Part shown: positions 3,384-61,104 of the stretch, piece after piece | How the letters are laid out: every line of letters starts with the position of its first letter | Numbering within the stretch: the first letter of the stretch is position 1 | Assembly (NCBI GenBank): GCA_963811105.1 | Contig: CAWEPZ010000011.1 | Coordinates: 1,120,001 to 1,184,000 of the forward strand | Length of the DNA stretch: 64,000 nucleotides | Direction: 5' to 3' | Origin: Candidatus Bathyarchaeota archaeon | GTDB lineage: Archaea > Thermoproteota > Bathyarchaeia > Bathyarchaeales > Bathycorpusculaceae | Program-made: the position numbers and the translations under genes | The notes under the pieces: generated by a model | The model's input: the letters and a program-made list of their open reading frames with translations, nothing else | Database searches by the model: none | Told to the model about the DNA's origin: nothing

Positions 3384-3498
3384 GATGAAACCTCTTTCCA
3401 TACACCGCTGCTAACTTTAAACTCAAAGCATGCAAGATGCTAGCTTAGAGCCTATTGAAAGCATGAAAAGGGCTTTAGAATGATATAATCCTTTCTCT

Positions 3499-4440
3499 CT
3501 ATTTTTTGTAATAGGGTCGTTTGATGAAGCTGTAGGCTTCGAGGGCTGCAGTGATGCCTTGGCCAACGGCGGTACCTACTTGTTTTATGGGTTGGTCGGT
3601 TACATCGCCTGCTGCAAAGATTCCAGGGAGGTTTGTTTGTTGACGATGATCAACTTTGATGTATCCGTGCTCATCTGTTTCTACTCCAGCAGCCTTGGCG
3701 AGTTGGCTGTTGGGAGCTTCACCAATTTGCACAAAAACTGCATCAACCTCTAATTCAAAGGTTTTGTTAGTAATGTTATCTATTAAAGTGACCGTTTTGA
3801 CTTGTTTGTCGCCTTTAATTTCTTGAATTTCAGTATTCCATATTATGTTGACATTGCTTTTTGCCGATATGTCAGTCACTAAACTTTCTTCAGCTCTGAA
3901 AGCTTGCCTCCTATGGATCACAGTAACCTGCGAAGCCAACCCTGAAAGGTAAAGTGTAGTGATACAAGCAGTGTTTCCACCGCCAACAACAAGCACTCGT
4001 TTGCCCTTAAAAAAAGGTCCATCACAAACGCCACAATAGCTTACTCCCCTACCGCGGAAGTCTTTTTCTCCTTTGACACCGACTTCTTTGTAATGCGACC
4101 CTGTTGAATAGATTATTGCCTGAGCCTCATAAGTTGTTCGTGAAGTTTTAACAATTTTCTTTTCACCCATAATCTCTAACTCATTAACAGACTCTAAGTC
4201 GTGAATTGTTGCGCCGACCTTTCTGCAATGTGAAGCCATTTTTTCCGCAAGCTCTCCACCACTGATTTCGGCAAAACCGGGGTAATTCACAACTGTTGAA
4301 GCGTCAGCTATTGTTCCTCCGGCAAATTTCTCATCTAAAATCAGCGTGGTTAATCCGCTTCGGACAGTATAGATTCCAGCTGACAGCCCTGCGGAGCCAG
4401 CACCGATTATTATTATGTCCCAGTTCTCCATAAACGGCAT
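3499..4440 (-). CDS. trxB: Thioredoxin reductase
   Basis: IIGAGSAG, GVSYCGVCDG, VGGGNTA, GIFAAGD motifs. Confidence 0.92.
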   Translation of the reverse strand: MPFMENWDIIIIGAGSAGLSAGIYTVRSGLTTLILDEKFAGGTIADASTVVNYPGFAEISGGELAEKMASHCRKVGATIHDLESVNELEIMGEKKIVKTSRTTYEAQAIIYSTGSHYKEVGVKGEKDFRGRGVSYCGVCDGPFFKGKRVLVVGGGNTACITTLYLSGLASQVTVIHRRQAFRAEESLVTDISAKSNVNIIWNTEIQEIKGDKQVKTVTLIDNITNKTFELEVDAVFVQIGEAPNSQLAKAAGVETDEHGYIKVDHRQQTNLPGIFAAGDVTDQPIKQVGTAVGQGITAALEAYSFIKRPYYKK

Positions 4441-4562
4441 CTCTTTGCCTAAAATAATGGATTGAGAAGTTTATGAATTGTTCTGTTATTTTGAAGCATC
4501 CAATAAGCAGATAAAGCTGAAATTATCTAGTTTAGTATCAGCAGTTTCTGAGGTGTAGGTTT

Positions 4563-6323
4563 TTGGGAAGATATAGGTGCACAGTTTGCAATTATGTCTA
4601 TGATGAAGTTAAAGAAGGAAAGAAATTTAGTGATTTGCCTAAAGAGTGGGTTTGCCCAGTTTGTGGAGCGCCTAAATCAGTTTTTGTACTCTTAACTGAG
4701 CAGGTTGAAGAGAAAAAAGTTGACCGTACTGTTTCTCAAGTTCTCATTGACCAAATCGCCGCTTGGGGAGTACAATACGTCTTTGGTATACCTGGTACTT
4801 CAACACTTGGCATCGTTGACGCAATACGGAAAAGCAATGGTAAAGTCAAGTATTTCCAAGTCAGACACGAGGAAACCGCTGCATTTATGGCTTCTGCATA
4901 CGGAAAACTCACTGGGCATGTTTCCGCTTGTCTGGGAATTTCTGGCCCCGGCGCAACAAACCTGGCAACTGGCTTATACGATGCAAAGCTTGATCATTCG
5001 GCGGTTTTAGCCTTAACAGGAATGGTGCCAAGACCACAGATTGGTACAGGTTCAATTCAGGAAGTTGACCAATATGCCTTTTTCCAGCCAGTGTGTGTTT
5101 TTAACAGCGTTCTAATGGCGGAGAATCAAACAACTTCGGTTGCCACTTTGGCAATTAGGCATGCACTTTTGAATCAGGGGGTCGCGCATATTGGTATTCC
5201 AAATGATTTGCAGAAGTTGCATTACGAAACTGCGATTTTGCCGTTTGAGGGCAGAATGCCTAATCTTGCTTATGGTCAGGAAGGATATGTGATTGAGAAG
5301 GCAGCAAGCGTTGTTGACGAATCGGTTAGACCTGTTATTCTTGCAGGTTTCGGATGCCGAGGTCAAGGCAACAAACTTCTGAAGTTAGCTACAAAGATTT
5401 CTGCTCCAATAATAACAACATTTAGAGCAAAAGGTGTTATTGACGAGCATGAAGCGTTGGATGTTGGTTGCCACGGTGGAGTTGGTTCGACTGCGGCTGC
5501 AGAGCTTATGCAAAAAGCTGATTTGCTCATAGCTATTGGTGCTTCGTTTTCTGATTTATCGTTAATTCCTCAGAAAAAAACTGTTCAGATTGATATTAAT
5601 CCACTAATGGTTGCGCGCCGTTACCCAGTTGAAGTCGGATTGATTGGCAACAGCGCCGTGCTGATTCCAAAGTTAACGGAGAAAGTTCATGAAAAAGAGA
5701 ATGCAGATTATTTGGCTGAGATTATTAGGTTGAAGCGAGATTGGTTAAATCAACTGGGAAGAGAAGCCGACTCAGCCTCGACGCCTATTAGGCCTCCTTA
5801 CATAATTAAGGTGTTGAATGACAAAGTCTCTGACGACGCTGTGATTTCTTTGGATATTGGTGAGAACTGTTGGTGGTTTGGCAGGAATTTTATGATGAAG
5901 AAATCGCAGAAATTTGTGATGAGCGGCGCATTGGCTTCAATGGGTTTTGGTTTGCCGGGTGCTATGGCTGCTGCATTGGCTTATCCGAACCGCCAGATTG
6001 TTTGCCTGACGGGTGATGGTGGGTTAACGATGGTTTTAGGCGACTTTCTAACCGCGTTGAAGTACAAATTGCAGGTTAAAGTCTTCGTTATGAACAATAA
6101 ACGACTTGGAATGATTATGCAGGAGCAAAAGGTTGAGGGTTATGAGAGCTGGCAAACGGACTTGTATGACTACAATTTCGCTGATTTTGCTGAACACTCA
6201 GGCGGCATGGGCATTAAAGTGACTGAGCCAAGTGAGCTTGAATCAGCCGTTGATAGGGCGCTCTCAGCCAAGGTTCCTACGATTGTAGATATTGATACGG
6301 ATCCAAGAAGATTCTTAATGTGA
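4563..6323 (+). CDS. ThDP-dependent pyruvate oxidase/acetolactate synthase family enzyme with N-terminal rubredoxin domain
   Basis: [11 protein letters not shown]...WVCPVCG rubredoxin; [20 protein letters not shown]...NN ThDP motif. Confidence 0.88.
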
Positions 6324-6333
6324 GGTGAACATT

Positions 6334-6750
6334 ATGAGTAAAAATCAAGGAACAACATTTGCCTTCATTGTGTCGCTGCTGGGGGGCTTAATAATCTTCA
6401 TAATCAGCACACTAAACGTTTTGTGGTTCAGTTCAGGCGCAACAAACTTTGGTGGCTACGGCAGCTTCATGCGAGGAGCGATGGACGGCTACCACAATTT
6501 CATGGGCACATACGGCGGTTCAACAAGCTTTCTTGCAGGCATTTCAGTGATAGGTGTAATTTGCGGAATCATAGTTGTAATTGGCGCCATTATGCTGCGG
6601 GTACAGCCGCATCAACATGTACCGTGGGCTATTCTTATCATAGCATTCTCGCTCGTCAGCTTTGTAGGCATGGGCGGATACTTCATCGGAGCCGTACTAG
6701 GCATTATCGGCGGAGCATTCGAATTAAGTGTCAGAAGAACAAACCCATAA
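6334..6750 (+). CDS. Small multi-pass membrane protein
   Basis: About four hydrophobic Gly-rich helices; SD GAGGTGA before ATG. Confidence 0.7.
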   Translation: MSKNQGTTFAFIVSLLGGLIIFIISTLNVLWFSSGATNFGGYGSFMRGAMDGYHNFMGTYGGSTSFLAGISVIGVICGIIVVIGAIMLRVQPHQHVPWAILIIAFSLVSFVGMGGYFIGAVLGIIGGAFELSVRRTNP

Positions 6751-11410: not shown

Positions 11411-12525
11411 GTGCAACCTACAAAACATGGCTCAAAAATAAATTCGACAAGCTTCAAACAATAGAATGCTATACTGCGGGAACCTCTCCTGAAACTATTG
11501 CGAAGCAAATAGGCGTCCAAACAAAACAAATAATCAAACTAAATTTTAACGAGAACCTATTTATTCCAAGAAAAAAACAAGCTAAACTCCTTGAAGAGTT
11601 GGCTGACGAGATTGATTTGCGGCTGTATCCTGAGGATGAAGAGGTTAAACTGCGAGAAAAGATCAGCATATACATTGGCGCTCTCCGAGATTACATTGTT
11701 GTTGGTAACGGTAGCGATGAGTTAATTGACCGAATCGTAAGGCTCTTTGTGGATAAGGGTGAAGCGGCGCTTTCATTTGCGCCAACGTTCGCTATTCCAC
11801 CGCTTTGTGTTAAAAGACAAGAAGGCGAATACATCACTGTGCCACTTTTAAGCAACCTGCAGATAGACGTTAAGGGACTCATTGCAAAGTTTTCAGATAA
11901 AACCAGGCTACTCTATCTTTGTTCACCTAATAACCCGACTTCAACACAGTACAAGATAGAGGATGTTGAAACTTTAGCCAAGACATTCCCAGGCATTGTC
12001 ATCTTGGATGAGGCTTATGGCGAATTTGCTGATTACTCGTTTGTGCCACGAATCAAGGAGTTTCAGAATATGATTATTCTGCGAACATTCTCCAAAGCTT
12101 TCGGATTAGCTGCGCTGAGGCTTGGTTACGCCGTGGCAAATCCTGAGTTAGCGAAGATTCTGAATGAAAAAGCGCCGCTACCATACCCAGTTAGCGGTTT
12201 TACGCTCATGATGGGTTCTAAGATGCTGGACAACACGGAATTGATGAAGGATTCCGTGGCGCAAGTGAAACGAGAGCGGGGAAAACTGATAAAAGAACTA
12301 AACGAAATAGAAGGCGTGCAAGCTTTCGATTCACAAGCAAACTTCCTTCTAATCAACACACAAAAGCCCGCTGACGAAGTCAATGAAAAACTGCTTAAAC
12401 GTGGCATTATGCTTAAGAAATGGGGCAAAATCCTGCAATACAATAACTGCTTCCGAGTCACAGTAGGCTTGCCAGAAATGAACACTAAACTGGTTGAAGC
12501 ACTAAAGCAAATTCAAAGTGATTAA
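11407..12525 (+). CDS. hisC: Histidinol-phosphate aminotransferase
   Basis: LNFNEN, GNGSDELI, CSPNNPT, DEAY, RTFSKAFGLAALRLGY. Confidence 0.95.
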   Translation: MSATYKTWLKNKFDKLQTIECYTAGTSPETIAKQIGVQTKQIIKLNFNENLFIPRKKQAKLLEELADEIDLRLYPEDEEVKLREKISIYIGALRDYIVVGNGSDELIDRIVRLFVDKGEAALSFAPTFAIPPLCVKRQEGEYITVPLLSNLQIDVKGLIAKFSDKTRLLYLCSPNNPTSTQYKIEDVETLAKTFPGIVILDEAYGEFADYSFVPRIKEFQNMIILRTFSKAFGLAALRLGYAVANPELAKILNEKAPLPYPVSGFTLMMGSKMLDNTELMKDSVAQVKRERGKLIKELNEIEGVQAFDSQANFLLINTQKPADEVNEKLLKRGIMLKKWGKILQYNNCFRVTVGLPEMNTKLVEALKQIQSD

Positions 12526-48077: not shown

Positions 48078-48603
48078 TCGTATTCACCAATTAAGTTTCT
48101 TTAATCTTGTGTTCGCCTATTTATTACTTTGCAGTAAGATGCGCAAATTATTTATTTTTATTTTTTTTTTTATAATTTTATAGAAATAGATTAGATTGAA
48201 ATTTGAATAAGAAGCGTGGATCTTTGACTTATTAGTATTTTGCTTTTTTTTTAAAATATTTAGGGTTTGCAGTTAAGACAAAACCTGGACAACCACATTC
48301 TTCAAAAAACGAAAGTCAGTCTTTTTTTTGCTTCTATAAAGTTAAAGTGGCGAAATCATATTCTTTTTTATCGAAAAGCAGCGAGGATTTTTATTCGAGT
48401 ATATAGTAGTGTTGTAGATATAGATATTAATTATATTGTGTTTTGTGTTTTTTTTTTAATTTATATTTTAAAAAAAAGATGAGATAGAAAAAAGTTTGTT
48501 ATTTATAAGTTTTGTAAGAAATGGATAAGGAAAAATGTTAAATGTAGATTGATTGAGTGGGAGTTTATGTTAGGTTAAAGTTTAACAAAATGAAGGAAAA
48601 AAA

Positions 48604-50936
48604 ATGAATAGAAAAACAAAATTGATCGCATACTAATTGTATTTTAATGATAGCTTTTTAACTTTGTAGCAATTACAGTTAAAGCTGCTCAATACACAAA
48701 TTTGTAAGATAGCGGTGGAATATGATTGCGTAGGTGTTATGCATATCAGATAGTTCAAATAATAGCTTAAATGAGCTTCACATTAACTATAGGAATTGGT
48801 TAATAGCTTCTTAGTGAATGTATGGTTTCACTATACTTCAGGTATTCGATATATGAAGGATGCGCTTCAAGTGATTTTACAAGATTGACGGTACATAAGA
48901 TATAGTTGGTCTGTTTATATAAAGGTGATATATCAGCTTGGTTTGATTACACGCTAATCAGGTTGGCATATGGATAATCAAGTTTGATTTTTGGTGTTAT
49001 TTCAGCGGGAAACTATAGCGTAGAGATTGGAATATGTGGTGGTTCAGTGTTCAACGCTCTCTCTCAGTTACTATGCATATTCTGACGGATTTACACTTAA
49101 CTGTTCACAATATGGTAGCTTCTTGTATGCTATGCTAACTGATTACTGGATAAGATTAATATGCTGAGAATCGAGAATGGTGGTCAATGCGGAATATTGC
49201 ACTGGTATAATAGGAGGAGGACTATGGATAGCAGATATAAACACATATATGAGCAACTATAAGTTCACGCTACGTTCAAGCGCTAAGCACGCTCACATGC
49301 ATGGAGAAGGTAGATGCTCTACGGACTGTTGGAGGCATATGGGGATAACAATTATGTACAATGTACTTTTCGCAAATATACAAGTGGTCAAACATAGTTA
49401 TGACGGCAGATGCTACAAACTCTCACAAAACCAATGACAACTTTAGTGAACGGTACATGCGAACGTTCCACACCGTTGGGAAGCAATGATTGCGAACTGG
49501 CGAAGTATACTGGCATTGACAGACGTAGTTCGCTAACAATGATTTTCTATGAATATTAATGTGCTGGCACGATCCAAATCCTGGGGAGTTACAGCATCAT
49601 TGGTAGCAGTAGTGATGGAAGAATGATTAAATACGATCATTACGGAGCTGTGACAGTAACGTTCGCATATGATAACAGGTACCTTTACATGGGATAATAC
49701 TTCTTAAGCGTACAGAACTTGGCAGTGCAGGTTACGCTTAATCAACTGGACAGTGCAGGGCGATGTATCAGGTTTGGCTTTCACAACTACAGGCTAATGG
49801 TAATGAACATATAACTGGTATTCAGCAGTTTAGGCACGTAGACTACGATAGCGGCATACTGTTAACACTCAGTAGTACTTCTCTGCACGGGGTTGCAGTG
49901 ACGTGTATATACAAATTAGTTAACAACTGGATATATGCTGTGGAACGTTCAGCGGGTGGTTTTGTACTTTTCAGTGGTAGCACTCAGTGCTGATATGGAA
50001 TATACGCGTTCGCTTCGATGATGGATACTGGTACGCTGGGATTGAATTCAGGTATAAACTATGGATAGGTGAATTGACAAGCTGGATGGGGAGCTTTGGG
50101 GATTACGGCGTTGATCATACGGCGGATGATAATCTCATATCAATATGACGGCGTGCAGCTACACTGGACCAACGGATAATAGTTTGTCTACCAGATAAAC
50201 TATACTCACGAACTCCCAGAGGGGTATTATGGTTCTCAATGGGTTACAGCATCATCGCTGATGGGAAGCTTTTCACATACAACAGTGAGCACACGCAGTC
50301 AATATACAAGAGGCTGGAGATTATGCATAAACATAAACAGGCGAAGGCATTGGAACATACAGGCTCTATGGCTCAACGCAGTGGCTGATGGATACCTATA
50401 GCAGGCAACGCATATGACGGCTACATGTATGTTTCGGGAAGGGCAGAGCGCACAACAGTTTCTGCTCAGACACGGTGACTTGGACTCAGTGTTGATTAAG
50501 GTACAGTTCTGGATCAGTTCCTGCTCAGCAGGTACTCCTGTGTTCGGCAGGTCATGGCACATACATGGAGTACTTGCATATGCAGAAGCGATCCCCAGCA
50601 CTTCACTGTGACTGGTGTCTGTCAGCTACTTGCTATTGACCGAACGGAACGCAGTTAACATTGGAACGGCAACAGTGAGTAGTGGCAACTCCAGTATGAA
50701 TTTACTCCGACAATCGACGGTGTTAAAGATTACAGCCACATTACAGGCGACGATGCTTATGGCATTCATGGGTAGATACAGGACTATCAGTCGGTGTAGT
50801 GCCTCAAGCATCCCAGACTGAACTGCATAGCAACGCAAACAGATTATACCATGACAATTATTGCTGCAGCTATTGGATTAGCATTGTTGTTGTTATCTCA
50901 GTTGCCATAGCTGTTATGATACTTGAGAAACGATAA
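48604..50936 (+). pseudogene. Large PQQ-propeller/surface protein gene, shattered by many deletions and C>T changes (pseudogene or consensus artefact)
   Basis: Readable fragments: MNRKTKLIA, TDYW, REWW, NTYMSNYKFT, IIADGKLFTYNSEH, MATYMEYLHMQK, DYTMTIIAAAIG...RKR*. Confidence 0.75.
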
Positions 50937-50999
50937 ATCAATCTGACAAAACCAAAACCCCATTTTCTTTTTTTCGTTAATCAAACTCCAAAAAGAGAA

Positions 51000-51384
51000 A
51001 AAACCCAGCCCAAACGGAGGTATATCCTTTCTCTCAAGAAAAGCTGAAAAGTTTTCATTACTTACCGCATTATGCAATGATATTTGTTGTTCAATGAAGG
51101 ATCAAACATTCCCTTAATCGTAAATAGGGTGCTTATTATGCTCTGAACCTAAGCCCATAGGTTGAAAAACTGTTTCGAATTTATTCCACCGCAATATTTG
51201 TTCTTGAGTCATAGAATAGAGTACCAGTATGTCGAAATCGAGAAGTCTATCTTTTTCTCTAAGAATCCCACCAAGGCATAAATAGCATTAACTTGAACTG
51301 GAAGATCTAACTATGCATGTTTTCAATTAATCGCTCAAGATTCCTAAGAAGGGTTGACCTTCGTAGGCTATTCTTATTGGGCAT
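51000..51384 (-). pseudogene. Fragmented pol-beta-superfamily nucleotidyltransferase-like gene
   Basis: MPNKNSLRRSTLLRNLERLIE...LPVQVNAIYA[fs]GGILREKDRLLDFDILVLY (GG-x-DxD-like); 3' boundary approximate. Confidence 0.45.
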
Positions 51385-51599
51385 CGTTTAATTGATTAAT
51401 GTTGAAATTCTTTTTAAATTTAGGGCAGAGCAAGTGAGAAGTTTTTTATCTTTAAACGACTAAATATATCAATCGTTGTCTTGTTTTGTGTTGTCTTCAG
51501 AGTTAACTCTCTGTTTTGTTGTCTCCTTGATGTAAAGTGAAAAGTGATTCAAGCTTCCCTGGCTGCAAAAAATGTTTGAAGATTTCAAGGAAAAGTTGG

Positions 51600-52020
51600 A
51601 AAACTGCAAAACAAGCTCTATCAAAATGCAGGATTAATTTCTTCAGGTGAATCCCTTGGAAGACGATACGACATTGCGTTCACAGCATACTGAAAATACT
51701 CAAAACTCAACTTATGTCATTAAACGTTCAAGCAGACTACATCGAATACATGATGGGACACACCATCAGCACCTACCACGACATACAGATGAAAGGCGTA
51801 GAATTTCTACGCGCATATACGCAACTTCAGGCTTAAGCATTAAACCTAAAACACGAATCAACAAAATAGACGCACTCAAAGAAATCATAAGAAGTGAAAA
51901 CACAACGAAACCTAACCAGAGAAGCCCTAACTAAACCAAACGCAACCATCATCGAAACAAAACAAGTTGAAAACAGCCAAATAAAACAACTCAAAATAAA
52001 TATAAAAAAATAAATGCTAA
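51600..52020 (+). mobile_element. Tyrosine recombinase/integrase C-terminal fragment, frameshifted
   Basis: Across frames: LYQNAGLI...GRRYD..VHSI..KTQLMSLNVQADYIEYMMGHTISTYHDIQMKGVEFLR (HxxR-like box, GH, catalytic Tyr). Confidence 0.75.
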
Positions 52021-52025
52021 AAAAA

Positions 52026-52083
<58 letters not shown>

Positions 52084-52175
52084 ACTTTGCAGTAATCTAC
52101 GGGACATTTAGACCTAAACTATAAAAACAGAAAAATCGTAAGTGTTATGCCCCTTTTTTTCAGCATTGAACAATT

Positions 52176-52418
52176 TCATTGGCGTATTGTGCAAAGCGTT
52201 CTTTCCGCTGTCGAAGCACTAAAAAGTAAATCGTCAATGGTGGCGGTAAAAGTGGCTAGTTTTACTTCACATTTTATCAGAGTTACAACTTTTTTCTTTT
52301 CTCTCATTGTTTTAACGACAAGTCCAATTGGAGTTTTGGAGTTGTCTGGGGAAACAGCATTGGACACTGCCTCAGCTGTTTTCTCGTCAGCGTACTCAAG
52401 TGTTATCGTTGCTTCCAA
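52176..52418 (-). CDS. pcc1: KEOPS subunit Pcc1
   Basis: 80 aa, AVSPDN, TFTATIDDLL; follows rps15-DHH. Confidence 0.85.
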   Translation of the reverse strand: MEATITLEYADEKTAEAVSNAVSPDNSKTPIGLVVKTMREKKKVVTLIKCEVKLATFTATIDDLLFSASTAERTLCTIRQ

Positions 52419-53862
52419 GTTTCTCGCCTTTTAATTGTCTGCCAATTAGTTCATCCACTGTTTTAATGAAACTTTCAACCTTGTCGATTGGAGTTTGAGC
52501 TCCTGCTGCAATATTGTGTCCTCCACCTTTGCCTCCATTCGCTTCTGAAGCTAACCGCATAACTTCTCCCAGGTTTACGCCTTTGCGAATTGCAGCTTCT
52601 GTTGTTCGTGCTGAAAATTTGGCCGCCTGCTCTTTTTCAACGTTAGCAAATGCTATGAGTGGTTTTTCGTTATTGGCTAGTCCAGAGACGATTATAGACG
52701 AGATTGTTCCAATGATTTTTTCGTTTATGAAACTTTCTCCATAGATGACGTAGATATTTTGGAGCTCTCGCATACGTTCAGGTTTTTCATTGACCCAGCC
52801 CAAATACTTGTTAATGTTCTTGCGATAGTCTTCAAGAATCTTGTTAGCTTCTTCGAGAGCTACTTTGCGGTCACCCATACAGATGGCTATGCCAAGGCTC
52901 GGTCTATCCATTCTTCCAGTTGAGTTTAACACAACTGCGAATTCTCTGGCATCCCGCAACGCGGTGTTTGGCTCTTCTTTAGTTAAAACGTAGATGTACC
53001 CAATCAAACTCTCAACCGTCAAATGTAACCCCTTAGATAACAAATGGTCAGCCAAAGCAGAGCACAAACGACGTTTTTCGTCTTCGTTTAAGTCGCGCAG
53101 CGCCCTCCACTTTTCACCTTGCTTAATGGGTATGTCTAAGCTTGCTAGGAAAGCTAAGGCTTTGTCTTCTTCTCCACTTAAGCCTGGAATAAATGGGTTA
53201 GTTGTAGTAGCCAAAGTCCGATGAATTGGCCTGGTTTCTCTGCCGAAAAAGGTTAGGTCTTTTTCAACTTTGAGTATGCCAGCTGCAACGGCGTCGTCTA
53301 CTATTATCTCATTTAGGCAGCATAGTCTTCTCTGTTCATACTTATCCTGCATATCACCCAAAGCGCCAACCAATGCTACTGGGGCCAAATCCACATTTGC
53401 AGAGTTTACTGCTTTAGCTACAAAGTAAGCAACACCTGAGCCACTAACATCACTTGCCCCATCAATTCCGAATAAATGAGGGTTTACCTGAACAAAATTG
53501 GGGTTGCTCGAGGTCCCATTCATCTGATGGTGATCAAGGATAAGCAACTTAAAGTTTGGGATTTTCTCGTTTAATAGGTCAAGGTTGCCGCTTCCAAAAT
53601 CCGTAAAAATAACCAGCTGCGGTTTGTCGGCACCGATTTCGCCAACGATTTTCTCATCAAGCTGCTGAGTAATCCTTATCCGAAACTTTGCATCAAGGCG
53701 ATATAGTACTTTGCCCAATATACCTGCAGCTGCGATGCCGTCGGCATCTAAATGCGAAAAAACGAGTATAAAGCCATCTTTGTGAGCGGTTTCCAAAATT
53801 ACTTTTGACGCCTCTGATGCTTTAGCTAAGAAGCGTTCAATAGATGCTTGCTGTGCAGCCAT
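52396..53862 (-). CDS. RecJ/GAN-like DHH family phosphoesterase
   Basis: SHLDADG, TDFG, LDHH, GALGD, FSAR, GGGH. Confidence 0.92.
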   Translation of the reverse strand: MAAQQASIERFLAKASEASKVILETAHKDGFILVFSHLDADGIAAAGILGKVLYRLDAKFRIRITQQLDEKIVGEIGADKPQLVIFTDFGSGNLDLLNEKIPNFKLLILDHHQMNGTSSNPNFVQVNPHLFGIDGASDVSGSGVAYFVAKAVNSANVDLAPVALVGALGDMQDKYEQRRLCCLNEIIVDDAVAAGILKVEKDLTFFGRETRPIHRTLATTTNPFIPGLSGEEDKALAFLASLDIPIKQGEKWRALRDLNEDEKRRLCSALADHLLSKGLHLTVESLIGYIYVLTKEEPNTALRDAREFAVVLNSTGRMDRPSLGIAICMGDRKVALEEANKILEDYRKNINKYLGWVNEKPERMRELQNIYVIYGESFINEKIIGTISSIIVSGLANNEKPLIAFANVEKEQAAKFSARTTEAAIRKGVNLGEVMRLASEANGGKGGGHNIAAGAQTPIDKVESFIKTVDELIGRQLKGEKLGSNDNT

Positions 53863-53950
53863 GCTTACGTCACGCTTTGCGTAAAGGGGCTAATTAGATT
53901 TAAAGCTGGTGTATCAGCAAAAAAAAATAAACAAAACCAAGAAAGAACGT

Positions 53951-54391
53951 TTAGGTTACAGATGCTATTTTTGGTTCGTACTTCCAGTTCTTAGCGATGA
54001 CGCCTTCACGCTTGTAATACCTTGAGAGCTTGTGGATCCTTGCTTCAATGATTTGCATGTTGCGTTTGTTGTGCAAATCCTTCTTGTTTTTGTCCAAGTG
54101 AACGGCGAGGCTTTGGGCTTTCTTCATCAGGTTTGTAAGATCCTCAGGCATTGATGGAGCTAAGCCCGCGCTTTGGAGAACGTCGCTTATGCTTTTTCCA
54201 ACTAAGGGCTTTACCAGAGGAATAGCGTATTGATCTCTAAGAATGGTGCCTATGCTGCTGAGTGAATGGCCTTCTTTGGCCAATTTTATAATAAATGATT
54301 CTACTTCTTCAGGCTGATACTTGCACCAGCTTGGAGGGCGCCTGCTGACAGGTCGCATTGAATGTGATTTTCCTTTTTCCTGCTTTGGCAA
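53951..54391 (-). CDS. rps15: 30S ribosomal protein S15 (uS15)
   Basis: GKSHSMRP, IGTILRDQYAIP, MPEDL, KDLHNKR, EARIHKLSRYYK. Confidence 0.96.
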   Translation of the reverse strand: MPKQEKGKSHSMRPVSRRPPSWCKYQPEEVESFIIKLAKEGHSLSSIGTILRDQYAIPLVKPLVGKSISDVLQSAGLAPSMPEDLTNLMKKAQSLAVHLDKNKKDLHNKRNMQIIEARIHKLSRYYKREGVIAKNWKYEPKIASVT

Positions 54392-54528
54392 ATGTTACAC
54401 CTTAAACTGCACCTAAACCATAGTCCACGAATATTTAAAAGTAGCTGGTTCCAGAAGGGTGAATATCTCCACTTTTAACCTTGAAACCTCAATTTTTAAC
54501 TCTTTCAGAAGTGATTCTCTTGTCTAAG

Positions 54529-54750
54529 ATGACCGATGCATTAACCGAGTGGATTCTTTCTTTTAATTCTGGAATGATGTGGTATAACAAACTAAGTTCC
54601 CAAGCCACTAAAGATACATACTTACCAAACCCCAAAAAATATTGCGTTAAGGTAGAAAAGAATCCTGATGAGTTGATAGAGCTAAAAATTCAAGGGCTAC
54701 AAGCCATAAACACGACTAAAGAATTTCAAGCTGAAAATTTATTTGAAATA
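54529..54750 (+). mobile_element. Truncated integrase N-terminal (SAM-like) fragment
   Basis: WYNKLSSQATKDTYLPN.KKYC..VEKNPDELIELK resembles integrase N-termini; sequence then changes abruptly. Confidence 0.5.
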
Positions 54751-54779
54751 AGGAATCCAACACAACCGCCTAAAGTTTT

Positions 54780-55037
54780 TCACTCTTCTAAATTATATTC
54801 TTGTTTTACATGTTCATCATGTCTTTTTCGTCCTTGCTTCGAAGACACTTTGCGCAAAAAGTCACGGAGTTGTTCAACACATTCGTTTTTAAATAGGTCT
54901 ACTTCTATTTTTGGCATTTCAAGATTTTGGCAAACCTGATTCCATAGAGTTTTAATTTTATACTCTGAGAGGACAACTACAACCCCTTCGCTATTAATTC
55001 TTTCTAATTCTCGGTCAGACTCCTCTTTCGAAAGCAT
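54780..55037 (-). CDS. Hypothetical protein/fragment in AT-rich island
   Basis: 85-aa ORF with ATG start, probably truncated at the junction with the integrase fragment. Confidence 0.4.
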   Translation of the reverse strand: MLSKEESDRELERINSEGVVVVLSEYKIKTLWNQVCQNLEMPKIEVDLFKNECVEQLRDFLRKVSSKQGRKRHDEHVKQEYNLEE

Positions 55038-55281
55038 ATAATCGCCTTTCTGGAAGTTTTATTTAAACCTTCAATGGATAATTTTTAGTCGATATGTAAT
55101 AAAAATTGAGTTAAAAATAGACGTTTAGCGCTAGAGGATTAATTATTTAATCTGTTATTCTTACTTCAGCACTATGCTTCTTAAGTTTAGCCATCGCTAA
55201 ATAGACTTAAATTTTTAACTGTTGGTAGTTTTTTTAAGTAGGTAAACATCATACTAATCATAGAAAAAAGCGGTAATTAGA

Positions 55282-56070
55282 TTGAATTGGAAACTACTAA
55301 CGGCAAGTATTATTGCTCTTGTATTAACAGTAATCGTAATATCAAGTTATTATTTTTCGGTTGTTTCTGCATATTTAGGTGCAATTTACTCATTATTGAC
55401 ATTAAGTACACCGTTTATAATATTTTTTCTAACTGAATACTTACTAAAAACCAGAATCCGTTTAGACATTAAAAATGTTCACCTAATAGCAAAAGGGTTC
55501 GGTCAGACATTCACAGGTTACCAAGTTACTGCTTTAATAACGAACAAAGGCAAGAAAATTTGTTTTAACTTGGATGACTTGAAAGTCAAGATAAATGATA
55601 GTAAAGGCAATGCCCCTAACTTACTTAAAGTAACGAAGAAATTATCAGGACACCAAAGGGAACTCACAATAGAGGAAGAGAATTTTAGAAGTATAGGTTA
55701 CACTTCAATAGATGAAAAAGGCAACAAAATAAATACCATTGAAAAACTAAGAAAAGACGATAAATACATCTTAATTTTTCCTTACGAAACTAAGACGGAT
55801 ATAAAAAATGGCAATAAAGAAACTGGATTTTCTTCACATACGGAATATTTGCTAGACCTTAACAAGGATGAGGAATACTCAGGAGAAATAATAGTCAAGG
55901 GTGAAGATTCCGAAAAAAATACTGTTTTAAAATCTGTGTCCTTCAAGATTAAAGTATTGCCAATTGAAATTACGACTACAAAAGACCTAGATGCCATTCT
56001 TTTAATGAATCAAATCGTAGGACTAGAAAAGCGAAGTAAACCAGAAAAATTCCAGAATTCAATTTCTTAA
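55282..56070 (+). CDS. Hypothetical membrane-anchored protein in AT-rich island
   Basis: Two N-terminal TM helices, Lys/Asn-rich; a coiled-coil reading frame continues to ~56299 out of frame. Confidence 0.6.
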   Translation: MNWKLLTASIIALVLTVIVISSYYFSVVSAYLGAIYSLLTLSTPFIIFFLTEYLLKTRIRLDIKNVHLIAKGFGQTFTGYQVTALITNKGKKICFNLDDLKVKINDSKGNAPNLLKVTKKLSGHQRELTIEEENFRSIGYTSIDEKGNKINTIEKLRKDDKYILIFPYETKTDIKNGNKETGFSSHTEYLLDLNKDEEYSGEIIVKGEDSEKNTVLKSVSFKIKVLPIEITTTKDLDAILLMNQIVGLEKRSKPEKFQNSIS

Positions 56071-56871
56071 CGATAGCATTACTTTACACCAAAAAAGAAT
56101 TAATGAATTAACCAGCGATGTTATTAAGAAAGACGTTGAGATCAAACAACTTAGCAGACAAATTAGTAGTATGTCAAGCCAAGTGGAACAGGCAAAGATG
56201 CAAATTGAAAAATTAACAAGGGAAGAAGGAGAACTTATTCGAATTAATGAAAAGTTAATGAAGGATTTGAAGGAAAATCCTAGAATTATTGTTAAATGAC
56301 CTCATATTTTTGCCCTTGCTTTTTTGCCAACTTTAGAAGTGAGATGAGCGAAAAGGGAATCAAATTTGCTGACGGCATAAAGGACAAACTGCGGGGACAT
56401 TTATTGTAAGTCCAAACTTAGATGTCTCTACGGAATGAAAATTAAATGTGGATTGACATTTCGGACATTTGGAAGTAGAGCCTACAGAGAAAAAATTAAC
56501 CTTAGCAGATATGCAAGAACTTTATAGCCCAACTTCAAAAGCATCCAAAGACATGAGGAGTATAAGAAAAAAACCTTAGCTGAAAAGCATCTAGAAACTA
56601 GTGAAGAGAACTTAGACCAATCCGTTTATAGTGACGATAAAGAAGCACCACTCAAGAAAATACTGATTTAGAAGAGGATGAATCCTTTTTAGATGAAGAG
56701 GATATGGACTGGTAAATTTCAAAGTTTTTTGAATAGTAAGTTAGTAGAATATAGAAGGAAGCCAAAAAAAAATGAGAAACAAACAAGAAACCGAAAATAA
56801 AGGAAGAGTACCTCTCTGAGTTGGATTAAAAGTAATCCTTAATAATGAAAAAAGCAAGATTTGGAAAATAT

Positions 56872-57498
56872 TTAGGTCCTCTTCTTTTTATTCCACTCAG
56901 CAAATTTCCGAATAGCCATTGCCCGATGCGAGAAACCGTTCTTCTCCTTGATTGTCATTTCTGCAAACGTTTTGCTGCTTCCAGTTGGCTGAAAAACAGG
57001 GTCAAAACCGAAACATGCTTTCCCTTTTTGTTTGCGTTCGGCTAGGGTTATTTCGCCTACGGATTCGCCGCTAAAACACATCGGCTCGCATAAGGTTTCG
57101 TCTACATAAGCTATAACTGACTCGAACTTCGCCCGTCTGTCTGCCATTCCTTCCATGAGTTTGAGCATACCGCTATTGTGGATAGTCTTGTAAACGTAAG
57201 CCGCATATGGCCCTGGAAAACCAGTGAGCGTATCAATAAATAAGCCTGCGTCTTCTACAAAAATCGGAAGCTTTGTGTTTTTGTATGCATTTATTACGCT
57301 TTTTTGGGCGATTTCTTTTAGGCTATCGCTTTGAACTTCATCTCCCTTAACACGCAGCAGCGCCACTGTTAAGCCGTATGGGCTAAGAATGCTTCGGGCT
57401 TCATTAAATTTGTTGATGTTGCCCGTTGCAAAGAAGACAACCTTGTTTGATAAACCGAAGGTTCGATTATTGTTTTCTTTCTTCGACATAGCGGCCAC
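56872..57498 (-). CDS. rdgB: Non-canonical purine NTP pyrophosphatase (RdgB/HAM1)
   Basis: FATGNINK, EDAGL, GFPGPY, FGFDPVF, SHRAMA. Confidence 0.95.
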   Translation of the reverse strand: MAAMSKKENNNRTFGLSNKVVFFATGNINKFNEARSILSPYGLTVALLRVKGDEVQSDSLKEIAQKSVINAYKNTKLPIFVEDAGLFIDTLTGFPGPYAAYVYKTIHNSGMLKLMEGMADRRAKFESVIAYVDETLCEPMCFSGESVGEITLAERKQKGKACFGFDPVFQPTGSSKTFAEMTIKEKNGFSHRAMAIRKFAEWNKKKRT

Positions 57499-58126
57499 GC
57501 TTCTCTATCTCCCTGATTTTCGCATAAACGTTTTCAGCCTCCTCAACTCCCAAAACCGACGAATAGCCAGATAAGACTTTCTTGAAGCATGATTCCCAAA
57601 CCAAATAATGCGTACTCTGAAGCGCTCGCTTCATTAAATGCAAATCCACACCTTTCGCCTCCACTTCGCAGTTTTTTTCACCTAAACCGAAGTCAATAAA
57701 AAATATTTTGCCTTCAGGATTAAGAATCATGTTCGAAGTTGTTAAATCGCCGTGGATTAAGCTGTGTCTGTGAAGTTTCCCGATTAATTCGCCGATTTTG
57801 AAACATAATTCATTTCGCCTTTCTTCTGAAGCTTCATTGAGCAATTGTTTGATTTGCTCTCCCTCCACATACTCCATTATAATGGAAGCTTGGGGCACGT
57901 TAACCATATAAATCAGCGGAGTCGGCACCCCTGCTGTTTTAGCTTCATGAATCAATTGCGGTTCATGAACGGTACGATAACTCCGAATTTGCTCATCTAA
58001 TGCAAGGGGACGATATCTTTTTGGGATTCGCACCTTAATAACAACTTTCTTGCCATGCCACTCGGCAAGATAAAGACTGGCTTCTGCCCCTTTTTTAAAC
58101 AGCGTTAACTCGACTACTGTATCCAT
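57467..58126 (-). CDS. bud32: KEOPS kinase Bud32
   Basis: KGAEA, KRYR, HGDLTTSN, IDFGL, DLHL, RGRY. Confidence 0.95.
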   Translation of the reverse strand: MDTVVELTLFKKGAEASLYLAEWHGKKVVIKVRIPKRYRPLALDEQIRSYRTVHEPQLIHEAKTAGVPTPLIYMVNVPQASIIMEYVEGEQIKQLLNEASEERRNELCFKIGELIGKLHRHSLIHGDLTTSNMILNPEGKIFFIDFGLGEKNCEVEAKGVDLHLMKRALQSTHYLVWESCFKKVLSGYSSVLGVEEAENVYAKIREIEKRGRYVEERKQ

Positions 58127-59148
58127 GGTACATCTACCTTATCCACACGCCAGCGAAGCTTAACATAACTCTCATTCAAAGGAGTAACCAACCCATGACT
58201 GTAAGCCAAAACGCCCGTCCATGCAATCATTGCACCGTTGTCTGTTGCAAACTGAAGCGGAACTACTCTAAACCGTGCACTATGCTCCTGTGAAATAACT
58301 TCAAGCATAGACTGTAACCGTTTGTTAGCTGCTACCCCACCAGTTAACAAAACCTCTTTCTTTTCGGTGTGTGCCAATGCTCGCTCTGTGACTTCGGTAA
58401 CCATTGAGAAAGCATATTCCTGAAGGCTATAACACAAATCTTCCAGGCACCATTTGCCCTCATGCAGCCGGGCCGTCGCCGCCGTCAGCAAACCGCTAAG
58501 AGACAAATCCATACCTTTAACAAGATAGGGCAAAGAAACCAAATTTTCACCTTTAGCAGCCAACTGTTCTACCGCAGCTCCAAGCGGTAACCCCTTCTTG
58601 TGCTTAAGACCCGCTTCTCTTGCAAAAACGTCCAAGCAGTTTCCTAAGGCTATATCTAGAGTTTCACCAAAAACTCTGTAGCGTCCAGATTCAAAAGCCG
58701 TAACCATCGTGTTACCGCCTGAAACATAAAGAGTTACGGGGTCCTTAGCGCTGGTTTCCAGCTTCCCAATTTCAATATGCGCCACAGAATGGTTAACCCC
58801 TACAAGCGGAATGTTAAGGTAAGAAGCTAAAGCCCGAGCGACAGTTGCTCCTGTACGCAAAGAGGGTCCTAACCCTGGTCCTTGAGAGAACGCGATAACC
58901 GTTAAGTCACTTGGTTTCAAGCTTGCGGCGGTTAAGGCTTCCTTCAAGACTTTGTCAGCTACTTCAGAGTGGTGTCTTGCGGCTTCTCTAGGGTGGATTC
59001 CGCCTTCTGCAGGAATGTAGCTGTCTGATTTGTTGGCTAGTATTTTGCCTTCGAATGTCGCTATACCAACGCCAAAATCGTCTGCCGAAGATTCTATCCC
59101 TAAACTGTAAGCTCTTTCATTGTTCTGCTGTTTTTGCGTGTTCTTCAT
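58114..59148 (-). CDS. kae1: KEOPS t6A synthase Kae1
   Basis: LGIESSA, GGIHPREAA, GPGLGPSL, VNHSVAHIE, YVSGGNT, DNGAMIA. Confidence 0.96.
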   Translation of the reverse strand: MKNTQKQQNNERAYSLGIESSADDFGVGIATFEGKILANKSDSYIPAEGGIHPREAARHHSEVADKVLKEALTAASLKPSDLTVIAFSQGPGLGPSLRTGATVARALASYLNIPLVGVNHSVAHIEIGKLETSAKDPVTLYVSGGNTMVTAFESGRYRVFGETLDIALGNCLDVFAREAGLKHKKGLPLGAAVEQLAAKGENLVSLPYLVKGMDLSLSGLLTAATARLHEGKWCLEDLCYSLQEYAFSMVTEVTERALAHTEKKEVLLTGGVAANKRLQSMLEVISQEHSARFRVVPLQFATDNGAMIAWTGVLAYSHGLVTPLNESYVKLRWRVDKVDVPWIQ

Positions 59149-59233
59149 GGTATTCCACGTTTCTTAGGGGATACATATTTTTATTTGGATTCAACGCTTA
59201 TATTCTAATTGCATTATTTGGAATTGATATTAG

Positions 59234-60284: not shown

Positions 60285-60553
60285 TGCGAAGAAGAAAGCT
60301 AATTTCTTCTCATAGCTTCGCTTTCAGTGCTGGCTAACCCATCATACACTGAGTCGTCTTTTGGTTGATAAACCCAGTTCTGAGGAGGGCTAAAAGATAC
60401 TTTAATACAAACTTCATAGTTTGGCACATAGTTTTGCATTGAGCGCCGAAAAGTGCTAACAAAGGTTAAATTGTTAGAAACGATAAACCATTGTGCGCGA
60501 GAATTTCATGCACCAAGAATTCGATCCGTGAACCAAAAGAAGGCTTACCTAAC

Positions 60554-61104
60554 ATGAAACTTGACTTGGCCTTTTGGAAAAACGCCTCATCTAAACGTAA
60601 GAGAATCTACTTCACTATCTTCATTTTTCTAGTTGCGCTTATCGTCACAGTTGTCGGGAAGTTATATACCGCTCAGTCATCAAGACGCAAAGACATTAAG
60701 TGACCAGGTAAATGCAACATTAAATACTCATAGATCAGACAATACCTTAACCCAATACATTTTTCTAAATAACTTTGAAATTTGCTTGGTAATGTTTGTT
60801 CCATTTATCGGGCCTGTAATAGGATTATTTATACTATTTGATACTGGCGTGGCGCTTGGCGCAATAGCATCTGTACAAGGCTACCCTGTATGGTTTGGTT
60901 TGCTAAACCTAATACTTACGCCTGTGTTTGGCTTGAATTTACTGCCTATTCCACTGCAATAGCAGAAAGCATCTGGCTACTCCGCAGACTAATTCAGGGG
61001 CGTTGGCGAGAACTGAAAAACACAGGGATACTAATCGGCATCTGTGCAGCATACTAATCATAGGAGCAATAGTGGAAGTTTGGCTGATAAGTATTGCTGG
61101 CTAA
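60554..61104 (+). pseudogene. SpoIIM-like membrane protein with three single-base frameshifts
   Basis: IFLNN...VPFIGP...TG...P.FWLE...GAIVE recovered by correcting indels near 60658, 60930 and 61050. Confidence 0.7.

Follow-up and report, generated by a model that had tools for sequence, protein, structure and literature searches.

The locus and its inserted island

The window, that is, the whole stretch of 64,000 nt analysed here from a Candidatus Bathyarchaeota archaeon (contig CAWEPZ010000011.1), carries a broken surface-protein gene and a fragment of an integrase-like gene in an island that is inserted between two exact copies of a 14-bp direct repeat (Table 1). In locus L001, which is 96.3% identical to the window in nucleotide sequence over both flanks, the window positions 48137 and 52082 map to the overlapping positions 11774 and 11787, and in L001 and other Bathyarchaeia relatives the site is empty and has a single copy of the repeat. 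The 14-bp core was found once in each of 13 related loci and twice in L002, and L002 was the only one of the 22 related loci with both flanks found that has a multi-kb insert at the site. This insert is a different element of 5.2 kb, flanked by the same 14-bp core. The 14-bp repeat is either the core of an attachment site or a target duplication. The target is intergenic, with a Pcc1-like gene on one side and a membrane-protein gene on the other, and no tRNA gene was found at the integration site. From these comparisons the island is strain-variable and is an integrated element that was acquired recently, because the site is empty in a relative at 96% nucleotide identity.

Table 1. Features of the island and of its two ends (positions in the window)
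Feature	Position	Strand	Evidence or remark
Left copy of 14-bp direct repeat TTACTTTGCAGTAA	48124..48137	+	Exact match; L001 left-flank alignment ends at 48137
Inserted island, 3,944 nt, integrated-element remnant	48138..52081	.	Absent from closest relatives; holds all anomalies
T-rich C-free left end of island	48145..48214	+	70-nt C-free run; T is 52% in 48100-48199
CC-free interval	48295..49430	+	Flanking CC at 48293 and 49431; gap 1,138 nt
C-free stretch, 39 G and 0 C, 5' of surface-protein start codon	48397..48585	+	Composition count
Broken gene for a PQQ-like beta-propeller surface protein	48605..50936	+	Family matches and profile alignment; 40-47 stops per frame
Fragment like an integrase C-terminus (tyrosine recombinase), with 1-nt deletions	51613..51960	+	77% nt identity to L002 12341-11924
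Progressive change of other bases to A, then pure A54 (52028-52081)	51961..52081	+	Alignment to L002
Right copy of 14-bp direct repeat	52082..52095	+	Exact match; L001 right-flank alignment starts at 52082

Direct repeats at both ends, exact over 14 bp, and an empty one-repeat site in relatives are shared with archaeal integrase-mediated integrative elements, and so are an integrase-like gene near one end and a second element, that of L002, with the same core. The differences are that only a fragment of the integrase is left here, with a weakly assigned family, and that the target is intergenic with no tRNA gene.

No ORF of 120 aa or more was found between 48077 and 52396. The flanking genes are housekeeping genes and their ORFs are all intact, as the earlier note on this DNA had claimed for the core genes. 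Aligned to L001, the left flank shows 16 single-base gaps over 7,148 columns and the right flank 3 gap openings over 2,369. The damage ends exactly at the repeats. The anomaly had been described as extending over 48120..50940, which falls short of its length, as it runs to 52081 and its far end is distorted in another manner, with everything changed to A. A tblastx comparison of the island with 80 loci and with all other parts of the window matched the integrase-like end of L002 and nothing else, and in an alignment the left ends of the two islands were too weakly similar for convincing homology. A Pfam search of six frames of 50941-51960 and 48138-48610 gave one sub-threshold match (Capsule_synth, E=0.032), an Rfam search gave no match and a tandem-repeat search found A and T tracts only.

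The right end of the island

The homologue of the integrase-like fragment in L002 has weak matches to PF00589 (E=0.0093, below the cut-off) and to the PHROG 216 integrase (E=1.4e-4), and the fragment in the window itself has no family match. In the L002 island the integrase-like gene is broken too. The right end aligns to L002 almost without gaps, and the part that contains the A tract is 63 nt in the window against 68 nt in L002. When the differences from L002 were counted in bins toward the repeat, those with A in the window were 7/22, 7/16, 12/24, 16/21 and 29/29, the last two bins being 51961-52027 and 52028-52081. The 29 differences in the last 54 nt are 10 C>A, 10 G>A and 9 T>A, and the L002 counterpart of the 54 A residues is complex sequence without poly(A). 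Neither the insertion of a mobile element nor its poly(A) end had been seen in the earlier note. A diversity-generating retroelement was considered for this end and rejected. Mutagenesis by such retroelements is adenine-specific and turns an A of the template into any base, whereas the changes here go toward A (A in the window versus A in L002 was 16:1 and 29:0 in the last two bins).

Base composition of the island

The earlier note had reported a stretch without C and a longer one without CC on the plus strand, with G and GG plentiful, and all of this was borne out by counting. The C-free stretch of 189 nt (69 A, 0 C, 39 G and 81 T) is the longest C-free run of the window, and the runs ranked second and third, of 70 nt (48145-48214) and 67 nt (52018-52084), belong to the same island. 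The second-longest CC-free gap, of 487 nt (49682-50169), is also inside the surface-protein gene, and no other part of the window has one above 245 nt. In successive segments GG occurs 17, 26, 37, 45 and 19 times and CC 0, 0, 6, 5 and 14 times, and the C content per segment from left to right is 0, 11, 17, 18, 19 and 22%. The C-free and CC-free runs are beyond chance expectation: the longest C-free run and CC-free gap reached 62 and 349 nt when the whole window was shuffled 300 times, and 95 and 528 nt when 48120-50940 was shuffled 2,000 times at its own C-poor composition.

A recurrent artefact of this kind was sought in 1.52 Mb of related MAG loci and none was found. The longest CC-free gap in those loci is 375 nt and lies in a stretch of 97% A+T that is also without GG, and the C-free stretches of L012 and L015 and the GG-poor stretches of L005 and L068 are either short or without both C and G. 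The C residues that survive in the damaged region are preceded by A in 38%, by G in 33% and by T in 29% of cases, which is about what is found in control genes when CC is set aside. The elimination of CC is compatible either with a preference for CC or with a collapse of C runs. General homopolymer compression was rejected as an explanation, as runs of G are normal and those of A and T are like the ones in an intact PQQ-like control gene.

The surface-protein gene

The gene was claimed earlier to be recognisable as one for a PQQ-type surface protein, and this holds, as a word-seeded search gave 64 protein matches at E<=0.01 (best 3.3e-16), mostly to proteins of about 850 aa with PF13360. The matching segments are collinear from query residue 117 to 853, and the profile alignment covers columns 1-842. 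On these matches the gene belongs to the PQQ-like beta-propeller surface proteins (PF13360), its product having a signal peptide at the start and a C-terminal membrane anchor. It is 2,332 nt long against 843 profile columns (2,529 nt), a shortfall of about 200 nt, and 206 of the 351 conserved family columns are still matched. The family has 6.7% Pro and is not notably rich in it, although it had been called Pro-rich. A Pfam search of the three plus-strand frames of the gene, with X read at stops, gave no match, and no second copy of the gene was found within the window. A HMMER scan of 1.84 billion representatives gave 13 matches at E<=0.001, of which the best non-self match had E=8.6e-14 and 35% identity, and tblastn of the family against all loci found one distant intact relative, in L005, which served as the control gene. 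No intact close orthologue of the gene was found in these searches. The earlier note had proposed to tabulate C>T changes and C deletions on an alignment to an intact orthologue; as there were only distant family members, the base changes were inferred, and this tabulation made, at the level of the protein profile.

The gene was aligned, with frameshifts allowed, to a profile of 54 family members at frameshift penalties of 10 and 12. At penalty 10 it needs 61 single deletions, 2 double deletions and 8 insertions, and at penalty 12 it needs 47 single deletions, 1 double deletion and 7 insertions, whereas the intact control gene has 0 frameshifts at both penalties. The damage is therefore at least about 55-70 frameshifts, nearly all of them 1-nt deletions, with a ratio of deletions to insertions of about 8:1. 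The cheap-deletion score was 1331 for C against 1134 for A, 1141 for G and 1129 for T, and when the 61 inferred single deletions were shared out among the bases, C received 24.8 and each other base 10.8-13.0, so that C is not the best explanation for about 60% of the inferred deletions. Among the 20 double deletions that were inferred, 8 were uniquely best restored by CC, at conserved prolines. The conserved-proline columns retained are 5 of 17 overall and 0 of 6 at or before 49430, where the CCN codons are gone, as had been stated, and many of the conserved prolines look deleted rather than converted. Judged on the profile, cytosine is the base that is preferentially lost from this gene.

The substitutions and the deletions have different distributions. 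On the profile alignment the best single substitution model is C>T and the second is C>A, and the inferred C>T events per 400 nt are 10 and 11 on the left and 1, 0 and 2 on the right; the mirror model, G>A, gives 5 events in total. The inferred deletions per 400 nt along the gene are 20, 17, 19, 20, 18 and 12, which is even, unlike the C>T gradient. Thus, of the claim that the damage fades rightwards, the rise of C and the fall of C>T remain, whereas the deletions do not fade. The C>T signal rests on the profile alignment, because a codon count on the frames supported by tblastn shows no overall excess (C>T accounts for 9 of 145 mismatches, G>T for 13 and A>G for 11). The 17 in-frame stops align with columns in which P, S, T, A, K, D, V or N is in the majority and never Q or R, and the string GGA ATT GGT TAA TAG CTT, which had been read as an altered G-I-G-Q-Q-L, has G-V-G-Q-P-L as its family consensus. 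An erasure of C by C>T, as claimed earlier, is hence right as to the best substitution model but not as to the main kind of damage, which is 1-nt deletion.

Probable origin of the cytosine loss

The most probable explanation, which we hold with fair confidence on the sequence evidence, is that the cytosine erasure is a sequencing or consensus artefact over a strain-variable island and not a property of the DNA of the organism. A badly resolved long-read patch is the most likely source because the whole element has 1-nt deletions together with odd conversions. A real and recently acquired element, with a PQQ-type gene and an integrase-like remnant between two 14-bp attachment cores, sits in a Bathyarchaeia genome that was assembled as a very long contig. 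Because the island is strain-variable it was probably supported by few reads, perhaps in one orientation only, and its consensus would have been left at or below the quality of the raw reads, with many 1-nt deletions, C and CC being dropped most, C being called as T or A, and the calls at the right end collapsing to A. The flanks, which would be common to cells without the island, would be polished clean up to the repeats. The step behind such an artefact may be low coverage, coverage of one strand, poor signal, or modified or damaged bases. The earlier note had ranked this explanation first, above its two alternatives of cytosine modification and deamination, and the order stands; the insertion with its repeats, the variability of the island, the predominance of deletions, the bias against C, the change to A and the clean flanks are established here, and from these we infer the artefact itself.

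The errors are indel-dominated and confined to a segment that other cells lack, with clean flanks, and in this they resemble unpolished long-read regions. The damage has no replicate either: among 5.8 billion clusters, an ORF of 86 aa created by it has 1 member, on a single contig of 1,498,331 nt. According to PMC11610603, the errors that remain in nanopore R10.4.1 assemblies are mostly C>T and G>A, strand-specific and modification-induced, and the errors here are likewise base- and strand-specific. The mis-called regions reported there differ in being isolated motif sites and not every C over hundreds of bases, and neither a kb-scale gradient nor a collapse to A is described. Our literature search for this artefact gave no direct match for a C-specific gradient on the kb scale with a collapse to A at the other end. 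Further points count against an artefact. General homopolymer compression is not supported by the run lengths, and the C>T signal is seen in the profile alignment but not in the codon count. It is not a routine pipeline fault, since no like case is present in the 1.52 Mb of related MAG loci; the limit of the damage at the repeats also fits a process that acted before integration; and uracil excision with translesion bypass could leave -1 deletions at C besides C>T and C>A changes.

If the damage is an artefact, strain-variable islands in long-read MAGs may be grossly distorted beside perfectly polished flanks, in a way that can pass for hypermutation, pseudogenes, poly(A) tails or odd composition, and orphan ORFs from them reach the protein databases, where the 86-aa ORF of this island already is. 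Extreme dropout of a single base, together with the density of frameshifts against a family profile, would flag such patches.

Possible modification or hypermutation of the island

A different explanation, which we regard as unlikely, is that the native DNA of the island is densely modified or damaged, with modified C, uracil or abasic sites on one strand, and that this corrupts basecalling; the underlying sequence would then be normal and the chemistry of the DNA unusual. It would account for the base and strand specificity of the errors and their confinement to a mobile element. Mobile elements can carry modification systems of their own; no modification gene was recognisable in this island by Pfam. 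The modification-induced nanopore errors reported in PMC11610603, which are strand-specific with C>T and G>A predominant, are in keeping with this explanation, but known cases are motif-specific and do not affect every C. Hypermodification of the whole element is not expected, because an integrated element replicates with the chromosome, and if both strands were modified, G should be corrupted too, unless every read derived from a single strand. Nor would modification explain the gradient or why the right end collapses to A.

Somewhat less likely still is that the cytosines were really lost through strand-specific hypermutation, in which a single-stranded-DNA cytosine deaminase like APOBEC3G or AID would act on the plus strand when exposed at entry, replication or transcription, and excision of the uracils would lead to error-prone bypass. 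The products would be -1 deletions along with C>T and C>A changes, graded by the time for which a part of the element was single-stranded, and the process would amount to an archaeal counterpart of APOBEC3G/AID in genome defence, the wreck being integrated or retained at the attachment site. In archaea, translesion bypass of abasic sites is described in PMC8721586 as causing both frameshifts and substitutions. The data agree with such a process in that C is the preferred base lost, whether by deletion or by C>T, C>A being next, that C>T falls from left to right with few mirror G>A events, that CC is gone but AC, GC and TC remain in about equal measure, that the damage stops at the attachment repeats, and that ordinary decay is inadequate for a recent insertion. 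A strand-specific and graded loss of C with elimination of CC resembles deamination by APOBEC3G/AID, and bypass of abasic sites could in principle account for -1 deletions occurring together with C>T and C>A. Deamination alone is insufficient, because it can give neither deletions nor a conversion of everything to A: in place of one-strand C>T without indels, at least 47-61 single-base deletions were found, against 0 in the control. Many deletions are away from C and off the gradient, T>A and C>A are as frequent as G>A at the right end, which ends in 54 A residues with no deaminase route to them, and the C-free stretch lies 5' of the gene and not inside it. No deaminase was found among the 21 window ORFs (36958-63890) and 6 L002 ORFs scanned against Pfam, and the damaged sequence has no independent copy. 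Our literature search found no case of deaminase hypermutation in archaea and no precedent for a saturating loss of every C over 189 nt. If real, the loss would be the first evidence for targeted strand-specific DNA hypermutation of archaeal mobile elements and would bear on genome defence and on the origin of AID/APOBEC-like editing.

Repeat-induced point mutation (RIP) of fungi is similar in that mobile or foreign DNA is made A+T-rich through loss of C. It needs a duplicated sequence, hits both strands, makes only transitions and prefers CpA, whereas the window has a single copy, the loss is restricted to C and CC of one strand, with G and GG left as they were, and the damage includes many indels and shows no preference for a neighbouring base beyond that for CC. 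It was rejected.

Pseudogene decay and retroposition as doubtful alternatives

That the island is an old dead mobile element in ordinary pseudogene decay is very doubtful. There is no intact gene in it, its integrase is reduced to a fragment and the related island of L002 also has a broken integrase-like gene, all as decay would have it. However, ordinary decay cannot explain the damage because the insertion is recent, and yet the gene, with so many of its conserved columns still matched, carries no fewer than about 55-70 frameshifts. The strong excess of deletions over insertions, the extreme base and strand bias and a pure A tract of 54 nt in place of complex sequence in the related element also speak against it.

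Insertion of a reverse-transcribed copy by target-primed retroposition, with a poly(A) tail and a target-site duplication, would place the A tract directly 5' of the right repeat copy, where it is, and non-LTR retroposition was nonetheless rejected as barely credible, since the tract is collinear with complex L002 sequence and preceded by a gradient of changes to A, no reverse transcriptase was recognisable in the island by Pfam, and the same core flanks the different element of L002, whose homologous end has no poly(A). Whether the damage is artefactual or real, the intergenic 14-bp attachment site, which lies beside a KEOPS and RecJ-like cluster, serves at least two different Bathyarchaeia elements.

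An integrated element at an apparently reused attachment site

Eighty related loci were retrieved by way of the neighbouring RecJ-like DHH protein, the genome of the window belonging to the Bathyarchaeia. When the window was aligned to L001, the closest of these loci (98% amino acid and about 96% nucleotide identity), the alignment of the left flank stopped at 48137 and that of the right flank began at 52082 with an overlap of 14 nt, and therefore window 48138-52081 is an insertion of 3,944 nt. Among the 22 loci in which both flanks were found, a multi-kb insert at this site was present only in L002, where it is a different element bracketed by the same 14-bp core; thirteen loci have a single copy of the core and L002 has two. 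Window 51613-52027 is homologous to the right end of the L002 element (77% nucleotide identity), and the protein encoded there in L002 is weakly integrase-like (PHROG 216 integrase, E=1.4e-4; PF00589, E=0.0093, below the cut-off). Because the site is empty in L001, is flanked by repeats in the window and holds in L002 an element homologous at its right end, we conclude that the island is a real, recently acquired integrated element. The 14-bp core appears to be a reused attachment site and not a tRNA gene.

Coordinates of the island repeat and of the related element in L002
Feature	Sequence	Locus	Positions	Remark
Direct repeat	TTACTTTGCAGTAA	window	48124-48137 and 52082-52095	exact copies flanking the island
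Different 5.2-kb element		L002	11865-17082	bracketed by the same 14-bp core
14-bp core	TTACTTTRCAGTAA	L002	11851-11864 and 17083-17096	intergenic

The intergenic core TTACTTTRCAGTAA is thus shared by two different integrated elements, one in each of two Bathyarchaeia genomes, and brackets both. The integrase-like fragment of the island has 1-nt gaps relative to L002. In L002, too, the integrase-like gene (11981-12503) is interrupted, by a 2-nt gap compared to the window, and therefore the L002 island is also broken or imperfectly assembled.

On one side the island adjoins a Pcc1-like gene next to the RecJ-like gene and on the other a gene for a 609-aa membrane protein, and the housekeeping genes around it are intact, as had been claimed. 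Window 52176-59148 has Pfam matches to the KEOPS components Pcc1, RIO/Bud32-type kinase and Kae1/TsaD and also holds the RecJ-like DHH protein, ribosomal protein S15 and Ham1, all of them intact. The alignment to L001 has 16 single-base gaps over 7,148 columns of the left flank and 3 gap openings over 2,369 columns of the right, and therefore the distortion is strictly local to the island. L001 has no blastn match to window 54443-56826 or to about 60308-60927, and these are further strain-variable regions; ORFs 54481-54939 and 55282-56070 match no Pfam family. In another related locus, L012, an unrelated second island of 6.2 kb (278-6462) lies at the site equivalent to window 59169-59184, where the flank alignments of the window overlap by 16 nt, and within it a 333-nt stretch (3774-4106) is 97% A+T with no C and few G.

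Loss of cytosine within the island

The earlier note had reported a stretch free of C and a longer one free of CC, and direct counting bore out both: 48397-48585 (189 nt) has 39 G and no C, and CC is missing between 48293 and 49431 (1,138 nt), where GG is still frequent. These are the longest runs of their kind within the window. The next C-free runs, of 70 nt (48145-48214) and 67 nt (52018-52084), and the next CC-free gap, of 487 nt (49682-50169), lie inside the same island, and the longest CC-free gap outside it in the window is 245 nt. In 300 shuffles of the whole window the maxima were 62 nt C-free and 349 nt CC-free, so that the observed values were never approached, and in 2,000 shuffles of 48120-50940 at its own composition they were 95 nt and 528 nt, respectively. 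No comparable anomaly was found in the 1.52 Mb of related MAG loci, where CC-free gaps reach at most 375 nt, the longest lying in a 97% A+T stretch that also lacks GG. Short, natural-looking stretches with a strong strand asymmetry do occur in three of these loci, L015 (5663-5790, G+T-rich), L068 (18000-18200, A+C-rich) and L005 (7614-8042, GG-free), none of which comes near the length of the anomaly in the window.

The proposed left-to-right gradient was also seen, with C climbing from 0 to 22% across the gene. The surviving C shows no preference for its neighbours except that CC is missing. Runs of two or more make up 5.4% of the C runs of the gene compared to a mean of 19.7% (minimum 11.7%) in 39 genes of the window. 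General homopolymer compression is unsupported, as G runs are normal and A/T runs are like those of a PQQ-like control.

Type of damage in the surface-protein gene

All three plus-strand frames of 48605-50940 are broken, with 40-47 stops per frame in 778 codons, and a Pfam scan of these frames gave no match. They do, however, match PQQ-like beta-propeller proteins of about 850 aa, the kind of surface protein that the earlier note had recognised (64 matches at E<=0.01, the best at 3.3e-16, most with PF13360). These matches stay collinear from the signal region at the N-terminus to the membrane anchor at the C-terminus while switching frame repeatedly. Since no close intact orthologue was found among 1.84 billion representatives, all damage was inferred against a family profile (54 full-length members, 843 match columns, mean pairwise identity 49%), which exceeds the length of the island gene by about 200 nt. 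One family member of 862 aa, P0030, is intact and is recorded on a contig that equals in length (1,498,331 nt) the one with the damaged ORF described below, and therefore the genome may hold an intact paralogue elsewhere; the identity of P0030 to those parts of the damaged gene that can still be read is only about 33%.

C>T changes had been taken to be inferable; a C>T signal is seen in the profile alignment, but a reading by C>T alone fails at the codon level. Allowing C to be read as T aided the profile score most (+124 with cheap deletions and +153 without) and allowing it to be read as A came second (+69 and +110, respectively), and the C>T events deduced in this way fade rightwards (10, 11, 5, 1, 0 and 2 per 400 nt). 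In combined models the C version scored 952 in the island gene versus 771-780 for the three mirror models, and an intact PQQ-like control gene in L005 (5000-7795) showed no base preference (646, 629, 624 and 642). In the tblastn-supported frames 206 of 351 conserved columns equal the family consensus, and C>T alone explains 9 of the 145 mismatches (G>T 13, A>G 11, C>A 10). For none of the 17 in-frame stops is the family majority Q or R; it is P, S, T, A, K, D, V or N. The supposed absence of CCN codons holds for 12 of 17 conserved-proline columns, including all 6 at or before 49430, but CCN is kept in the other 5. Some lost prolines are TCA, CTA or TTA, which is C>T-like; others are TGA, TAT, ATA, CAT, TAA, GTA, CAG or CGA and are easier read as loss of one or both Cs.

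When the gene was aligned to the profile allowing frameshifts, at penalties of 10 and 12 where the control gene needs none, 61 single and 2 double deletions with 8 insertions were required at penalty 10, and 47 single and 1 double deletion with 7 insertions at penalty 12. Cheap deletion of one base lifted the score from 736 to 1331 for C and to 1134, 1141 and 1129 for A, G and T, versus 158 for C and 82, 139 and 115 for A, G and T with a reversed profile. The best-fitting missing base at penalty 10 was C in 24.8 of 61 deletions (G 13.0, A 12.3, T 10.8). As a calibration, 60 known bases were removed from the control gene in each of three trials, and the correct base was picked for 34-58% of the events called; set against this, the deletions in the island look like a mixture in which those of C are the largest class but not the sole one. 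CC at conserved prolines was uniquely the best restoration in 8 of 20 putative double deletions. Several results thus indicate that C was lost more often than any other base. The deduced deletions run flat along the gene (20, 17, 19, 20, 18 and 12 per 400 nt) whereas C>T falls, which separates the damage into a uniform background rich in deletions and a gradient of the C>T type.

Conversion to A at the right end

The right end of the island aligns almost ungapped to that of the L002 element. The share of differences with A in the window climbs toward the repeat, from 7/22 through 7/16, 12/24 and 16/21 to 29/29, and those in the opposite direction, with A in L002, number 4, 4, 5, 1 and 0. The island closes with 54 nt of A alone; L002 has complex sequence of almost equal length at this place, and the changes are 10 C>A, 10 G>A and 9 T>A. 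We know of no deaminase pathway that converts T and C to A.

Origin of the damage

The most economical reading, and probably the right one, is that the consensus over a strain-variable island stayed very poor. The island would have been backed by few reads, possibly in one orientation only, and the flanks, which are shared with island-free cells, would have been polished. The damaged sequence creates an 86-aa ORF (P0068) that has a single database member, on one contig of 1,498,331 nt; the damage is thus not replicated independently, and the assembly is one of long contigs. In nanopore assemblies DNA modification induces strand-specific C>T and G>A errors, according to PMC11610603. A variant of the consensus error, which we regard as unlikely, is that unusual DNA chemistry of the island caused the miscalls.

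Less likely still is real deamination of cytosine on a single strand, followed by uracil excision and archaeal translesion bypass, which could leave C>T and C>A changes as well as -1 deletions at C. Also reported are the A-rule and, for polymerases of the DinB class, -1 deletions. Deamination could yield a gradient and stop at the ends of the element, and PMC8721586 discusses frameshifts and substitutions that arise when Dpo4 and Dpo2 bypass abasic sites. However, the deletions do not track the C>T gradient and many are not at C, the right end was turned to A from all bases, and the fully C-free stretch lies upstream of the gene.

Ordinary decay is very improbable: the empty site in a relative with 96% identical flanks marks the insertion as recent, too young for neutral decay to have made 55-70 frameshifts. 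Retroposition is hardly credible since the A tract, collinear with the complex L002 sequence, is not a retroposition tail.
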